Source of the DNA: Escherichia phage 232Ecol030PP
Direction: 5' to 3' (one strand)
Length of the DNA stretch: 64,000 nt
Sequence record: PP355090.1
The notes under the pieces were generated by a model. That model did no database searches and was not told where the DNA came from. It worked only from the letters and a program-made list of their open reading frames with translations. A program made the translations under genes and the position numbers. Numbering within the stretch: position 1 is the first letter of the stretch; each line of letters begins with the position of its first letter. Below are positions 57,749 through 64,000 of the stretch, piece by piece.

Positions 57749-59797
57749 TTATCCTTGAACGAACTTGTAAGGCATGTTTGCAATATCTATACAAGACGCA
57801 ATAATTCCAAGAGATGATTCTACTTTCTGTTTAACATTTGATGAAACAAATGATGCAAAATCAACTCTGTCTTCTATATCACCTGTCATTGTAACTACTT
57901 CGCCGGTTTCCATTAGACGGTCACCGTCATAAATTACCGATTCGGTGAGTTCTTCTGTGGTCATAACTTCAGCTTGAATAAGCTTGTTGTTAGTTTTAAC
58001 TGTTCCATCATTGTAAGATGCATCAGTTATTTTATTAACTTTGACCATTAATCCACGTGGCAAAATAACTTCCATTTCATTTGAAGGCGCTAAACTTCCA
58101 CCGGGTAAAACAACATTGACTTTATCAGCCCCAGTAATAACCCATCCAATTCCGACTAAATTATCGCTAGAATTAACAAGCCCTTCATCATTTTTATCGA
58201 TAGAAATGTTTAGACGCTTTTCATCTGGTAAAACACCAACAGCTGAATCAGTCATCCAAGTACCAAAAATGTTTGGATATAATGATGTTGACACAAAATT
58301 TCTAAAATAAAAAACTCGATTTTTTACCAGTGCTTCATATATTGAAGGTAACATTCGTTGTGAACGATACAAAGTAATACCTTTTGGTAATCGTTCACCA
58401 TTTTTAAAGGCAGAATCTAAATTATCAATAGCTTTTTCTATATCAGATGCTGTCAAAATACTTGTACGCTCATCTGGATTATATAATCCCAAAAGAGCGT
58501 TATTTATGTCTACATATCCTGAACTTACGTATTCACGAATTCCGCGTTTTTGTGCCGGTGTGTATTTAGATGAATCTTTATTTTCGACTATAGGATGTAG
58601 TGACCATCCAGCGGTAAGAGCATATCCACGCAATTCTCTTCGAATAATCTTTGTTTTTATTGCATTCCAAGAATTTTGTACTAACTCATTCGCAGCATCT
58701 TGATTTAAATGCGAATGCTTGTTAATGTTTCTTTCTAACCAAGCACCTTTATATTTTTCTAAAGTATCATCAACTATAGAAGCAATAGTTTCTAAAGTTT
58801 TTATTGAAGTAATAGATTCTTTTCGTAATCTTTCTAAAGCTTTATTTTTTATTTCTGCATTAACATCAGATTCTTTATCTTCAGGAATTATAGAAGCTTC
58901 TCTGAATGCCATTCCAGCTGTAACACTATTAAGAGCATTCTCTAATGCAAATCCTGAAGTAGAAATAACAGTTAATTCGTTAGCATCGGAAATTAAAGGC
59001 GCATCAGCGGGTTTATTTAATTCTGCTGCTGAAGCCTCAAATTTTTGAAACATCGGTGTTTCAAATCTAGAAGATTCCAATGATTGACTTTGCGCAATTG
59101 CTCTACGGGAAATTTTAACTTTAACGATTACAGCTTGGTCAGAACGTTTATCATTTTCTTGCGCAATAGATGCTGCAATTGCCTCATTTTTAGTTACTTG
59201 AGCTCCAGTATCTTTATTGATATAAACATCACCGACCTTCGATTCAACTTTAGTAAAGAGCTCAGTACTAATTTCCGGAACTCCCGGAATGTCTTCTAGT
59301 GATACATTTTTGCGATGTATAAGAATATATGCATACTTTTTATCGTAATCCCAGAGTTCCTTAAGAAGGACGTATCTGCCACCTGAACGACTACGGATAA
59401 GTCTATCAGCAATAACTTGAATTTGTCGAGCTTGACCAGCGGTTTTAGACTTAAGAATACGAAGCATACAGGCATCAATTTTATACTGACGCATTGTTTG
59501 CATCGCAACAGTAAAAACTGAATTGATATAATTAATTGGGCTTGGACCAAGACCTTTTAATTTAGCAATTGAACCTTTAGCAGTTAATGTAAAAGGAACA
59601 ATATGCATCATTTTATCGCCCATCTTTAAATCGCGATTAGTATCACCTCCAGATGTATAGGTACATAAACGAAAGCCTGGTTGTTCAATTGCATCATCAA
59701 CATGAACTGAAAAAATTTGCGGTATTTTCTTCTTTGGATTTAAGTTTGTAATCGGAAGAGTAGTATCTTCGTCAAATAATTCTGTAATAAGTTCCAT
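57749..59797 (-). CDS. alt: ADP-ribosyltransferase Alt (packaged, injected)
   Basis: ORF track 57749..59800 (MMELITELFDEDTTL...); start placed at the second Met to match the MELITELFD N-terminus; ART motifs LYRSQ, FVSTSL, MEVILPRG. Confidence 0.85.
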   Translation of the reverse strand: MELITELFDEDTTLPITNLNPKKKIPQIFSVHVDDAIEQPGFRLCTYTSGGDTNRDLKMGDKMMHIVPFTLTAKGSIAKLKGLGPSPINYINSVFTVAMQTMRQYKIDACMLRILKSKTAGQARQIQVIADRLIRSRSGGRYVLLKELWDYDKKYAYILIHRKNVSLEDIPGVPEISTELFTKVESKVGDVYINKDTGAQVTKNEAIAASIAQENDKRSDQAVIVKVKISRRAIAQSQSLESSRFETPMFQKFEASAAELNKPADAPLISDANELTVISTSGFALENALNSVTAGMAFREASIIPEDKESDVNAEIKNKALERLRKESITSIKTLETIASIVDDTLEKYKGAWLERNINKHSHLNQDAANELVQNSWNAIKTKIIRRELRGYALTAGWSLHPIVENKDSSKYTPAQKRGIREYVSSGYVDINNALLGLYNPDERTSILTASDIEKAIDNLDSAFKNGERLPKGITLYRSQRMLPSIYEALVKNRVFYFRNFVSTSLYPNIFGTWMTDSAVGVLPDEKRLNISIDKNDEGLVNSSDNLVGIGWVITGADKVNVVLPGGSLAPSNEMEVILPRGLMVKVNKITDASYNDGTVKTNNKLIQAEVMTTEELTESVIYDGDRLMETGEVVTMTGDIEDRVDFASFVSSNVKQKVESSLGIIASCIDIANMPYKFVQG

Positions 59798-59820
59798 CAT
59801 AGCCTCTCTAGTGTTTATTC

Positions 59821-59828
59821 TATTTATA
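59821..59828 (-). promoter_or_regulatory. Late promoter TATAAATA (minus strand) for alt
   Basis: plus tatttata 24 nt upstream of the alt ATG. Confidence 0.55.
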
Positions 59829-59833
59829 AAATT

Positions 59834-59851
59834 AAAGGCCCGAAGGCCTTT
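59834..59851 (-). terminator. Terminator hairpin between the small ORF and alt
   Basis: palindrome AAAGGCCCGAAGGCCTTT with flanking T-rich sequence. Confidence 0.55.
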
Positions 59852-60038
59852 AGTAATCTAGTGGTAAGAGAGTACGGTATATTTCAAACTTTGGACCTTT
59901 TTCATAGGCATCAAATGTTTCTGTGAATTTATTATAAGCGTATGCATCTACAAATTCGAGAATGACTTGTGATACAGAAGTAGAAACATCTCCACCTTCT
60001 TTTTGAGCAATGACAATTGTTTCTAAGTAAGCTTTCAT
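59850..60038 (-). CDS. Hypothetical small protein
   Basis: 62 aa ORF overlapping the gene 30 stop by 4 nt. Confidence 0.55.
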   Translation of the reverse strand: MKAYLETIVIAQKEGGDVSTSVSQVILEFVDAYAYNKFTETFDAYEKGPKFEIYRTLLPLDY

Positions 60039-61498
60039 AAACCAGTTACCTCATGAAAATCACCAAATACATCCTCGAATGTATTAGCTTTAGTTTTATC
60101 TTCACGCAAACGAATCGCAATCGGAAGAAATAATTTAACGTAATCAGTGCGGCCATCAGATTTTAACCAACCGTTGCATTCGCACTCTAGAATTTTTCCA
60201 ATATAATAATTTTGGTTTTCCATAATGCGAGTACGGTCAAGTTCATGCGATTTTACACCGGCTTTATCTTTTAAGCCTGAACCAGCATTTACTTTAATTT
60301 TTCCACACTCTGACTCAAGAATAAATCCACCTGCTTTAGTAGGGTCTTTACGGTGAGGATAAATTCCTACAATTTTTAAATCAACATCAATTACTTCTTT
60401 AAATTTATAGAGATTTTTTGAACGAGCATTTTCCCATAATCCATCGATATTTTTGAGAATAATACCTTCAAGACCTTGGTCAATATACTTTTTATAAATT
60501 ACCTTGGCTTCGTCTAGGTTATTTACTACCTGGTTTTCAATTAAAATTACTTTATCATAGCCTGATGTCATTTGTTCTAGTTTAGAAAAACGTACATCAT
60601 ATTTCAAACGAAATGCAGGAAGACCGTATATTTCTACCAACGGGACATAATCCCAGACCTGAAACTTCATGCATTGAGCTTCTTTTTCAGAAATGGTTCC
60701 CTTTAAAGATTTATTGGCGATGCCATTAGATGCAGTACGTGATTCAGCTACTTCGGCGAATTCTTTAGCTTTACTAATTTCAGGATAAGCATCAAAAAGA
60801 AAATCTAGGCCTTCTGGCTCCTTTTCAACTTGCTCATGGTATACCAATTCGCCATCAATTAACACGCCTTCTGGATGAATCTGGCGGGCTTCAGCGGTCA
60901 TTTTGATTAATTCTTCCTTAAGAAGATCTAATCCTAGATATTCATTACCAGCTCGTGATAAAAGACGAACGTCATCTAATTCATCACCTCTGACTTCGGC
61001 AAAGCACCGAGCTCCATCAGCTTTTAACTGGGCAAAGGCTGGAAATTTGATATTCTTATTAATGCCTTTTTCATCATAAGAACTTGCGAGCATTTGAGGT
61101 TGTTCAGGAATTAAACCTGGCCAAACTTTGTTTGCAATAGATACTGAAGCACCACATTCAAGGTCTCGCATCATCACTCGACGCAAAACTTCAACATCAT
61201 CTTTTTTACCATCAGTGATATATCCAGTTAATTCCTCAATTGCAGCATTTCCAGTCAATTTCCGAGTAGCTAACGTGAATTCAATGAAGTCAAGCATATC
61301 GGTAATAGTCAGCATTCCAAAACTCTGGGTAGCAATACCCGGTTTAGGCCATTTCTTGATATAATACTGTAACCCACGAGAATAAGTCAGACGATATACT
61401 CGTTTAAGCAATTCATTATCTTTATTCTTTTCAAGAATTGCTTGCTTCTGCTTAGTTGAACCAATAGATGCTATTTCGTTCAGAATTTTAAGAATCAT
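60035..61498 (-). CDS. 30: ATP-dependent DNA ligase
   Basis: 487 aa; adenylation motif KADGAR; T4 ligase length. Confidence 0.96.
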   Translation of the reverse strand: MILKILNEIASIGSTKQKQAILEKNKDNELLKRVYRLTYSRGLQYYIKKWPKPGIATQSFGMLTITDMLDFIEFTLATRKLTGNAAIEELTGYITDGKKDDVEVLRRVMMRDLECGASVSIANKVWPGLIPEQPQMLASSYDEKGINKNIKFPAFAQLKADGARCFAEVRGDELDDVRLLSRAGNEYLGLDLLKEELIKMTAEARQIHPEGVLIDGELVYHEQVEKEPEGLDFLFDAYPEISKAKEFAEVAESRTASNGIANKSLKGTISEKEAQCMKFQVWDYVPLVEIYGLPAFRLKYDVRFSKLEQMTSGYDKVILIENQVVNNLDEAKVIYKKYIDQGLEGIILKNIDGLWENARSKNLYKFKEVIDVDLKIVGIYPHRKDPTKAGGFILESECGKIKVNAGSGLKDKAGVKSHELDRTRIMENQNYYIGKILECECNGWLKSDGRTDYVKLFLPIAIRLREDKTKANTFEDVFGDFHEVTGL

Positions 61499-61764
61499 TG
61501 TTCATCCTTTAGAGTTTGGTTTACAGCTCTATTATAAATCAATTCATCATTAAGCTCAGTCAAAGACCTGTGGTACGTGGTTCTAACTTTATTTCCTTGC
61601 ATCCAGTGCTTGACGTAAATGAAACCTTGCTCTACACATTTTTTAAAAATTCGTTCGTCTTTTTGAGCTCGGAATTCTGGATTGCATCTAAAAAATTGAT
61701 TTACGTGACCGTAATCACGTGTAGTATTACCTTCATTTTCATAAATAGTGTGAACAACAAACAT
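61495..61764 (-). CDS. Hypothetical protein
   Basis: 89 aa ORF, 4-nt overlap with gene 30. Confidence 0.65.
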   Translation of the reverse strand: MFVVHTIYENEGNTTRDYGHVNQFFRCNPEFRAQKDERIFKKCVEQGFIYVKHWMQGNKVRTTYHRSLTELNDELIYNRAVNQTLKDEQ

Positions 61765-61976
61765 TAGAATGCTCCTTGGAAAATATTATCACCACTAGTA
61801 AATCTATTAAAATATCCTGCATCACCAGGCTTAGTATAACTCCACGTATGGAATGGATTCATATGATACGGGTGTGTATAATATGGATTATATGGATGTG
61901 TATAATATGGATTATACGGATTAAATCCAGGAGTTCTCCAGGTAGTGTTCCAACGAAAAGAATCGTTTTTAACCAT
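61764..61976 (-). CDS. Hypothetical Tyr/Pro-rich small protein with internal 8-aa tandem repeat
   Basis: 70 aa; YNPYYTHP repeated twice, encoded by a 24-bp tandem repeat. Confidence 0.55.
   Translation of the reverse strand: MVKNDSFRWNTTWRTPGFNPYNPYYTHPYNPYYTHPYHMNPFHTWSYTKPGDAGYFNRFTSGDNIFQGAF
61871..61918. repeat. 24-bp tandem repeat x2 (22/24 identical) inside the small ORF
   Basis: ggtgtgtataatatggattatatg / gatgtgtataatatggattatacg. Confidence 0.8.
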
Positions 61977-61993
61977 CTTCTCAATTACATCTT

Positions 61994-62626
61994 TTATAGC
62001 TTTTTCACTATCAAAACTTTCTTTATTTTCCTTCGGTGAAAAAGCTTATTTTCTACATCATTCCATGTATAAACTCGCTGCGCAGTTTTTGGAATATTGT
62101 CACGCTCTCCTCGAGCCATCCAATAAACAGGAACATTTAATATTTCACTCGCATGATCGCAGTGGTGGGCGAGATCGTCAATATAACAAATTACATTATA
62201 TTTCTCTTTTGCCTTTTTGAATAACTCTTCTTTTGAAGAATCATGACCACACATCATTACTTCTGAGAAGGCACCAGGAAAAAGAGCATTCAAATTAAAT
62301 TGACGATTCAGCAGAGCGTCAATAGAATCACCCAATGCTGTAACAGCTACAAAATTATAATCTTCTTTTAGTTTGTTAATTACGCACAGGGCATCTTTAT
62401 ATGGAGACAGGTAACGAATAAAATCTGATCGATTGTATTTTTCAATTAGCTTGACACCAAGTTCTTCATCACAATTAAAGAGTTTACCCGGAGAAATAAA
62501 TTTCTCATCTTGGATCATTTTTAAAATATGTTCTAACGGAAGATTATATTTCTGAGCAAAATAAGGAAGACCTGATTGCCAGCTTAAACATACTCCATCA
62601 ATATCAGTTAAAATAGTAGGCTTCAT
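61994..62626 (-). CDS. HAD-superfamily hydrolase-like protein
   Basis: 210 aa; N-terminal LTDIDGV (DxDG motif I) and later CYIDDL aspartates. Confidence 0.6.
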   Translation of the reverse strand: MKPTILTDIDGVCLSWQSGLPYFAQKYNLPLEHILKMIQDEKFISPGKLFNCDEELGVKLIEKYNRSDFIRYLSPYKDALCVINKLKEDYNFVAVTALGDSIDALLNRQFNLNALFPGAFSEVMMCGHDSSKEELFKKAKEKYNVICYIDDLAHHCDHASEILNVPVYWMARGERDNIPKTAQRVYTWNDVENKLFHRRKIKKVLIVKKL

Positions 62627-63087
62627 AGAGAGTCTCTTAATAGGTTTAACACATCAATAAATTCAGCTTCGGTTAGTATTGTATCATCTTTTGTTAGACC
62701 ACTAGCCATGCTGTGCTTCAAAACTTTTCCTTTCGAGGCTTGTAATGCATCGCGAAAGCCCCTGTTTTGGAACGCTGCTTCAAAATATGCATTTGTGTAT
62801 AATTCTTTCCACGCTGGAGAGTATCTTGAAAACGGAACTCCAAGCCAGAAGAGGGTCCCACGGTCCTGAGCTCTAGCATAAGACCTTCCAGCTTGTTGGG
62901 CGGCAAGCCCGGATAACCCAAATATACGACGTTGCTGTTCAATATTTTTCACCTTACACCCTTGGAGGAATCCTTCGAGACCTCCAAATTGGATACCATC
63001 CATAACAAAAGGCCATTGGGCGAAATTACTTAATGCGCATGATGGCCATCTAAAATTGCTTCTAATCTCTAACTCAGACATTTTCAA
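62623..63087 (-). CDS. NADAR (YbiA/DUF1768)-like protein
   Basis: 154 aa; motif block SNFAQWPFVMDGIQFGGLEGFLQGCK resembles the YbiA core DFSNFAAWPIKVDGKTWPTSEHYFQAQK. Confidence 0.6.
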   Translation of the reverse strand: MKMSELEIRSNFRWPSCALSNFAQWPFVMDGIQFGGLEGFLQGCKVKNIEQQRRIFGLSGLAAQQAGRSYARAQDRGTLFWLGVPFSRYSPAWKELYTNAYFEAAFQNRGFRDALQASKGKVLKHSMASGLTKDDTILTEAEFIDVLNLLRDSL

Positions 63088-63280
63088 TACTTATAATTTC
63101 AACATCAGCCCAATGACCATAGCAAGGAAGACGAAATTCAACTGGCCAGTTAGGGTCCTTTTTTAATATAATAGACTTAACTTGTGGTTCTTCGTGTTCA
63201 TCAGTATATGGATTTTTATCTGTTACTTTATATGTGACCTTAATGTACTGAATTCCAAAAATCTTATTAATTATATTCAT
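63074..63280 (-). CDS. Hypothetical protein
   Basis: 68 aa ORF, overlapping upstream and downstream ORFs. Confidence 0.55.
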   Translation of the reverse strand: MNIINKIFGIQYIKVTYKVTDKNPYTDEHEEPQVKSIILKKDPNWPVEFRLPCYGHWADVEIISIENV

Positions 63281-63474
63281 ACTAATTCCTTTAATCCGTA
63301 GATAGGAGATAATTCATCACCCATACGAAGGTCTTCATTTCCATCTACCCAGGAAACAATATAAGCCTCTTTTATTTGAATACCACTCCATTTAAATGGA
63401 GGTAGAACCTTAGAAATTAATCCAGGTATACCAACTCCCTTTAATTCAACAGTTTGACCTAAAAAGAATTTCAT
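63277..63474 (-). CDS. Hypothetical protein
   Basis: 65 aa ORF. Confidence 0.55.
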   Translation of the reverse strand: MKFFLGQTVELKGVGIPGLISKVLPPFKWSGIQIKEAYIVSWVDGNEDLRMGDELSPIYGLKELV

Positions 63475-63761
63475 TAAAACCTCATCTGAAAACCGTGCGA
63501 TTTAACATTACCGCCATTAATATCAGAACTATTAATTTCACGTGCAATTGAGGGATCAATGTCAATTTCGCGATTGAGTTTAGTGATAGCTAAAGTATCG
63601 CGCCCATTTACAGTACGGAACTCTAAAGGGCAGACTACATTAACGTAGTTTTTAATCGATTCACTGGTAGGTTGCAAATGTGCAGGAAGGTCTTTAGGCG
63701 CCTTTGAGAAAACTACTTCGCAGAAGTTTTTACGGGTATCAAAATAAGTAGTCATAAACAT
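63474..63761 (-). CDS. Hypothetical protein
   Basis: ORF track 63474..63812; start moved to internal MFMTTYF because the upstream extension reads through hairpin GGGGCTTTGGCCCC and an RBS-like GAGGAAAA precedes the internal ATG. Confidence 0.5.
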   Translation of the reverse strand: MFMTTYFDTRKNFCEVVFSKAPKDLPAHLQPTSESIKNYVNVVCPLEFRTVNGRDTLAITKLNREIDIDPSIAREINSSDINGGNVKSHGFQMRF

Positions 63762-63801
63762 AACATTTTCCTCAGTAAGGGGCCAAAGCCCCTCATTTAT
63801 T

Positions 63802-63996
63802 TTAAATATCAAATTCGTTAAGAACTACATCAAAGATTGCTTCAAGATGCTCAGGTTTAGCTCTGTTACTCAGAATATGACGAATCCAAGTTTTAACCAA
63901 AAGCTTGCGATTAACGCCATTCCAGCAAGGATGAGTCCCTAAATCGCGTTCACGGAAATCATCATCCAGAGCGATTTTAAAGTTGGAACCTTCCAT
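63802..63996 (-). CDS. Hypothetical protein (near window edge)
   Basis: 64 aa ORF; start codon 4 nt from the window end. Confidence 0.45.
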   Translation of the reverse strand: MEGSNFKIALDDDFRERDLGTHPCWNGVNRKLLVKTWIRHILSNRAKPEHLEAIFDVVLNEFDI

Positions 63997-64000
63997 CGTG

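Follow-up and report, generated by a model that had tools for sequence, protein, structure and literature searches.

The window analysed here, a 64,000-nucleotide stretch of Escherichia phage 232Ecol030PP (PP355090.1), contains an open reading frame in the DNA ligase region that raises the question whether this phage carries a protein of the NADAR family, and if so what such a protein would do for the phage. The frame is open without interruption at 62623..63087 (-), with 154 codons counted from a TTG. Two codons inside the TTG at 63087 there is an ATG at 63081, which lies within ATGTCTGA and overlaps the stop codon of gene 30.4. The T4 annotation (NC_000866) begins gene 30.3 at the ATG equivalent to 63081, giving a protein of 152 aa, and with this start the published T4 catalytic residues have the same numbers here, E36 and K43. 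Because the annotated T4 start and the E36/K43 numbering agree with the ATG, the CDS was taken as 62623..63081 (-), in keeping with the list of open reading frames, the PF08010 match and the alignment to T4. Translation would thus most likely start at ATG 63081 rather than at TTG 63087, and the predicted 154-aa frame is real with a likely product of 152 aa.

The protein matches Pfam PF08010 (Phage_30_3, 'Bacteriophage protein GP30.3') over profile positions 1-138 of 138, scoring 231 bits (E=4.8e-69) where the cutoff is 36 bits, and in PHROGs it belongs to phrog_652, function unknown. It is identical to T4 gp30.3 in 148 of 152 residues (97%) over the full length, and the PF08010 match together with this identity is far beyond chance. 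The substitutions relative to T4 are V47I, I104F, K107R and I125M, all conservative and none catalytic, the last being located two residues past His123, and the C-terminus ...NLLRDSL is the same as in T4. By its sequence the ORF is orthologous to T4 gene 30.3 (adfN); in the records of the nearest relatives it is still labelled 'hypothetical protein'.

An entry of 109 aa for gp30.3 in phage 132 (L002, 1725-2054) was considered as a real truncation and rejected, since the DNA of phage 132 encodes the full 152-aa ORF and the short entry therefore reflects the annotator's start choice; the database entry of phage SV76 (P0007) also lists gp30.3 as 109 aa. An internal ORF in an alternative frame, annotated as 30.3' (75 aa) in T4, is still open at 62718-62942 (-) in the window. 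The ATG of T4 30.3' is ATA in the window phage as a consequence of V47I in gene 30.3, leaving TTG only. The 30.3' frame of 76 codons stays open in most T4-like loci with 85% identity, which could simply reflect the conservation of gene 30.3.

The window is Tequatrovirus DNA. Over 2.6 kb around the ORF the identity to Escherichia phages ES12, ES26 and 132 is 99.9%, and this stretch has matches in a total of 721 phage records; the alignment to T4 is colinear across the 30.3 region. The T4 gene order alt - alt.1 - 30 (ligase) - 30.1 - 30.2 - 30.3 - 30.4 - 30.5 - 30.6 is kept, and every gene of the 30.3/ligase block is encoded on the minus strand. The DNA ligase, gene 30, is located at 60035..61498 (-) and is transcriptionally downstream of the NADAR gene, the reverse of the order first proposed. 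The neighbours of gene 30.3 are T4 genes 30.4, which codes for a small protein without assigned function, and 30.2, which codes for a HAD hydrolase. No DarT1 toxin gene was found among the neighbours, where the sole ADP-ribosyltransferase nearby is the protein-targeting Alt of 683 aa (57749..59800, -; PF03496, E=1.7e-35). The alt gene is thus located about 3 kb from an ADP-ribose-removing NADAR gene in the same co-directional block, which is standard T4 synteny, and no evidence for a functional link between the two genes was found. PADLOC gave no defence-system match, and a scan for promoters and terminators in 59800-64000 showed no enrichment over shuffled sequences. The maximal ORF of gene 30.6 (63474-63812, -) has 112 aa from a TTG, but Met18 is where the match in PHROGs and the 95-aa T4 annotation begin, and phage 132 differs by an indel of one nucleotide (T4 against T3 at 63766) a little 5' of this Met18.

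Signature block, fold and family

The NADAR signature block covers residues 18-43, SNFAQWPFVMDGIQFGGLEGFLQGCK (62953..63030, -), including the catalytic residues E36 and K43, and was located by regular expression, translation and family-profile alignment. The spacing is S18-N-F-x2-W-P-x3-D-G-x6-E36-x3-Q40-x2-K43, which in the HMM alignment is identical in E. coli YbiA (FSNFAAWPIKVDGKTWPTSEHYFQAQK); the family profile aligns the block to YbiA residues 29-79, with lsnfakwpfvmdgiqfGgleGfLqglK against the YbiA sequence. The block itself had been recognized in the original prediction, where it was given as SNF-x-WP-x3-DG-x7-E-x3-Q-x-K, a literal spacing that fails a regex test. A second SNFRWP is found at residues 8-13 of gp30.3, and this duplicate probably caused the miscount.

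Among 148 representatives of the same family, which share 30-44% identity with the window protein, E36 never varies, and conservation is at least 90% at S18, N19, G37, Q40, K43 and H123. The codon of His123 is located at 62713..62715 (-), in the last beta-strand (LKHS), which is the final strand of the AF2 model (122-125 in TTG numbering). This last-strand position is His in phage gp30.3-type NADARs, Glu in YbiA and Asp in DarT1-linked NADARs (PMC11125620). The C-terminal alpha-helix, approximately residues 138-151 (62629..62670, -), is intact and corresponds to the helix at 140-153 in TTG numbering of the AF2 model, with a pLDDT of about 90-95.

The AF2 model of gp30.3 has a pLDDT of 89.3 and a pTM of 0.86. 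Searched against the PDB with Foldseek it gave only three matches at probability 1.00, namely YbiA (2b3w), the Geobacter lovleyi NADAR (8bat) and the P. nicotianae NADAR with ADPr (8bau), so that the predicted fold matches NADAR structures only, with YbiA as the best structural match, tied with PnNADAR. The structural comparison with YbiA that had been suggested as a check thus came out positive, and on the predicted model the assignment to the NADAR fold is specific and strong. At the sequence level, a profile of ten family members searched against PDB sequences had E. coli YbiA (2b3w) as top match, with E=0.058 and on the signature block. A phmmer search of the window protein against the same sequences gave a chance-level match only, and an NCBIfam scan of the protein gave no match.

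A direct match to PF08719 (NADAR) was not obtained for the window protein even at E<=1. Profile searches without a significant NADAR hit had been named as grounds against the assignment, and, taken literally, this is what the single-sequence Pfam scan returned; the loss of conserved catalytic residues had been named as well, and E36 and K43 are both present. There is no direct match because Pfam files gp30.3 under PF08010, which it keeps as a family separate from PF08719, and the assignment as a NADAR-family protein therefore rests on fold, motif, transitive profile matches and literature, which agree. All 148 representatives match PF08010, and 37 of the 148 also match PF08719 (E<=0.01, best E=1.2e-6), with scores of 17.7-21.2 bits in the inspected relatives, below the 35.1-bit cutoff.

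A word-indexed homolog search found just 22 close relatives, and an exhaustive search of representatives was needed for the real size of the family. This profile search, of 1.84 billion representatives, gave 1449 members of the family at E<=1e-3, or 258 with the limit set at E<=1e-30. The family of gp30.3-type NADARs is thus large (1449 representatives at 50% clustering), with diverse architectures. Tandem NADAR repeats are present in P0024, with three matched stretches, and in P0023, P0025, P0026 and P0037, with two each. There are fusions to LRR_5/LRR_8, ASCH, GDSL lipase and UPF0227/alpha-beta hydrolase domains, and ten family members match DUF6939.

Predicted function and alternatives

Work published in 2023-2025 has already established the gene family with its fold and chemistry, and the part it plays against DarTG1. 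Purified T4 gp30.3 strips ADP-ribose from guanine, not thymidine, in DNA (Toxins 2024, PMC11125620); the construct is listed in Methods 4.2 of that paper as 'T4 phage NADAR (gp30.3; residues 1-208)' as against the 152-aa CDS in NC_000866, a discrepancy that could be due to a typing error, to a tag or to the use of another homolog. Gene 30.3 was renamed adfN, for anti-DarT factor NADAR, in 2025 (Johannesman et al., Nat Commun 2025, PMC11825919). In that work the resistance of T2 and T4 to DarTG1 was mapped to the 3' portion of 30.3, and AdfN was found to be both required and sufficient for T-even phages to grow on DarTG1 hosts. Purified AdfN de-ADP-ribosylates DNA modified by DarT1 and the E36A mutant does not; T4 AdfN is impaired by E36A, by K43A and by C-terminal truncation, and AdfN does not bind to DarT1 (PMC11825919). 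In a T4 transposon screen (HIDEN-SEQ), insertions in 30.3/adfN were tolerated on K-12 and 'completely lost' on DarTG1 hosts (bioRxiv 10.1101/2025.11.20.689424). In RB69 a frameshift in adfN removes the final 15 residues of the protein, and this phage is sensitive to DarTG1 and is rescued by ectopic adfN (PMC11825919). A further disrupted homolog is found in a 155-kb T4-like viral contig (L016:3977-4342), where the match is limited to residues 41-154 in an ORF of 122 aa and the N-terminal block with the catalytic E36 is either absent or in another frame; this may be another way in which adfN has been naturally inactivated, in addition to the C-terminal frameshift of RB69.

Taken together, the window gene is very probably a T4-type adfN of the gp30.3 clade within the NADAR superfamily, encoding a guanine-specific DNA ADP-ribosylglycohydrolase that would counter DarTG1. 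Since E36, K43, H123 and the complete C-terminal helix are kept, the allele of the window, with its four conservative substitutions, should act like T4 AdfN. The product would be a stand-alone NADAR-fold enzyme of 152 aa, made early in infection. In a host with the DarTG1 toxin-antitoxin system, the DarT1 ADP-ribosyltransferase would be released and put ADP-ribose on guanine bases of the phage DNA, which would block replication. AdfN would then cleave the N-glycosidic bond between guanine and ADP-ribose via the Glu36/Lys43 site and the phage-type His123, setting ADP-ribose free and making the DNA replicable again, and would in this way be an 'orphan antitoxin' that repairs the damage without binding the toxin. 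Counter-defence by reversal of base ADP-ribosylation, as originally proposed, is borne out by the experiments on the 97%-identical T4 AdfN, so that the proposal is supported and at the same time already known.

T4 AdfN fails to protect uninfected E. coli against DarT1 and gives only weak rescue of non-T-even phages (PMC11125620; PMC11825919). AdfN(T4) is fully active in T-even infection only and possibly needs another T-even protein (PMC11825919). The failure in uninfected cells and the weak effect in non-T-even phages mean that the full in vivo function depends on something else in T-even infection.

There is a small chance that the main substrate of gp30.3 is a soluble ADP-ribose derivative or another N-ribosyl small molecule, with the activity on DNA being secondary. 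Candidates would be immune signalling nucleotides (cADPR variants) or reactive intermediates of the riboflavin pathway, as for YbiA. NADARs of the YbiA type are N-glycosidases acting on riboflavin intermediates, the structural tie between YbiA and PnNADAR as best match of the gp30.3 model fits this reading, and T4 AdfN is no antitoxin in uninfected cells. However, the loss of adfN sensitises T4 specifically to DarTG1, a DNA-modifying system, the purified protein de-modifies DNA and its E36A mutant does not, and in the published tree the phage gp30.3-type NADARs are closest to the DarT1-linked NADARs and not to YbiA (PMC11825919). Even less probable is a role in reversing or editing the ADP-ribosylation that the phage itself carries out with Alt, encoded 3 kb away, and with ModA and ModB, encoded elsewhere. 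The position of alt (57749..59800) in the same co-directional block as 30.3 speaks for it, but proximity is the sole link between the two genes and a literature search turned up no such role. The three transferases act on protein arginines (ModB also on RNA ends), not on the N2 of guanine, and the NADARs tested so far are specific for guanine-ADPr, leaving thymidine-ADPr in place (PMC11125620; PMC11825919).

It is hardly credible that the ORF is decaying or inactive and has no function, as in RB69. Disrupted alleles do occur in relatives, by frameshift in RB69 and as an N-terminally truncated copy in contig L016, and the adjacent gene 30.2 is frameshifted in the same window. The ORF of the window is nevertheless of full length, retains its C-terminal helix and every catalytic or family-conserved residue, and is separated from the functional T4 allele by just four conservative changes. 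With the reading as a T4-type adfN thus preferred, the practical value of the analysis is one of annotation, in that the ORF can be labelled adfN in place of 'hypothetical protein', and the intact allele predicts that the window phage is resistant to DarTG1-type defence. The recurrent linkage between NADAR and HAD/NT5C proteins is a testable candidate explanation for the restriction of full T4-type AdfN activity to T-even infection.

Gene 30.2 and the NADAR-HAD pair

The HAD-superfamily (NT5C-like) core of gene 30.2 is encoded by an ORF of 210 aa at 61994..62626 (-), assigned by HAD motifs, profile and AF2 model. The original prediction had this gene immediately upstream of the NADAR gene; its HAD character is confirmed by the model, and it is located immediately downstream, where the stop codon of 30.3 (TGA) and the start codon of 30.2 (ATG) overlap in an ATGA at 62623..62626 (-). 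The same overlap is present in T4 and in 15 T4-like viral loci and suggests translational coupling of 30.3 and 30.2. Four HAD motifs are conserved in 37 homologs of gp30.2, namely D8/D10/G11, T96, K132 and D150/D151, and the top PDB match of the family profile is the 5'(3')-deoxyribonucleotidase 2jao (E=0.046). A Pfam scan of the window gp30.2 protein gave no match; among the 37 homologs eight match PF00702 and five match NT5C (PF06941, best 1.2e-4). The AF2 model has a pLDDT of 93.7 and matches 133 HAD structures at E<=1e-3, with deoxyribonucleotidases among the top-ranking structures but without a clear gap to other HADs. As modelled, gp30.2 is a genuine HAD fold.

In the window, a 1-nt homopolymer deletion at about 62038 (A5 versus A6, + strand) frameshifts gene 30.2 after approximately residue 197. 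In place of the single 278-aa protein of T4 there are the ORF of 210 aa, consisting of the intact HAD core and 13 out-of-frame residues, and an ORF of 70 aa at 61764..61976 (-), identified by alignment with T4 30.2 as the severed C-terminal tail with NPY-rich repeats. A frameshift common to the nearest relatives was rejected, T4, PST, phage 132, ES12 and ES26 all having A6, and A5 could be a mutation private to the window genome or else a sequencing error in the homopolymer. In many T4-like phages gp30.2 naturally has about 200 aa and no tail, so that the HAD core may have kept its function. Within the proline/tyrosine-rich tail, a 30-nt insertion relative to T4 at 61800-61900 (-) duplicates an NPYYTHPY unit, and across T4-like phages the tail is highly variable or absent.

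The possible need of AdfN(T4) for another T-even protein makes gp30.2 an obvious candidate partner. In such a case a gp30.3-type NADAR and the HAD/NT5C-like gp30.2 would form a two-enzyme module, gp30.2 would be the 'additional T-even protein' that AdfN seems to need, and its role could be to process freed ADP-ribose or ADP-ribosylated (deoxy)nucleotides against reincorporation or re-use. The 30.3-30.2 pair, with overlapping stop and start codons, is found in 15 of the 15 T4-like viral loci with room downstream. Among the more distant gp30.3-type proteins in phages and metagenomes there are four independent single-polypeptide fusions of an N-terminal gp30.3-type NADAR to a C-terminal NT5C domain, P0035 (NT5C E-value 1.6e-16), P0040 (1.8e-5), L025:3914-4966 (7.4e-10) and L026:3430-4437 (8.9e-15), and a fifth gp30.3-type protein, P0144, has a weak HAD match. 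These fusions mirror the 30.3-30.2 gene pair and may reflect a functional link. The fused HAD domains were also considered as close homologs of gp30.2, which was rejected as they are of the NT5C type and a phmmer search of gp30.2 against the fused gp30.3-family proteins gave no significant similarity. At seven of nine distant gp30.3-type loci no 30.2-like gene is found nearby, the text of the genome-wide T4 transposon screen on DarTG1 names adfN and does not mention 30.2 (bioRxiv 10.1101/2025.11.20.689424), and the frameshift past the HAD core in the window phage's own gene 30.2 counts against the module, which on the whole is considered unlikely. The NADAR-HAD/NT5C thread was not found in the searchable literature.

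Comparison with known NADAR proteins

The E. coli YbiA protein (2b3w; PF08719) is about 19-20% identical to the window protein, has Glu in the last strand where the window protein has His, and has a housekeeping role as an N-glycosidase of riboflavin intermediates and in swarming. The NADAR antitoxins of the DarG1 type (DarT1-NADAR operons, the Geobacter lovleyi NADAR 8bat and the 'BC4488' family) are encoded adjacent to their cognate DarT1, whereas the window gene is an orphan. Asp is found in the last strand of DarG1-type and BC4488 NADARs in contrast to His in the window protein, and the DarG1-type NADAR has 219 aa compared with 152 aa. T4 AdfN is unable to replace DarG1 in uninfected cells.

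AdfN(Bas32) and AdfN(Bas60), of T5-like phages and Vequintavirinae, are also orphan phage NADARs that counter DarTG1 by guanine de-ADP-ribosylation, and were acquired independently, from archaeal-type and bacterial-type branches of the NADAR family (PMC11825919). These two proteins are active without phage infection, whereas AdfN of the T4 type is fully active in T-even infection only (PMC11825919). From T4 the window differs by the four substitutions, by the frameshift in 30.2 and by ATA in place of the ATG of 30.3'; it is like T4 AdfN in the 97% identity, the flanking genes 30.4 and 30.2, the E36/K43 pair, His123 and the C-terminal helix.
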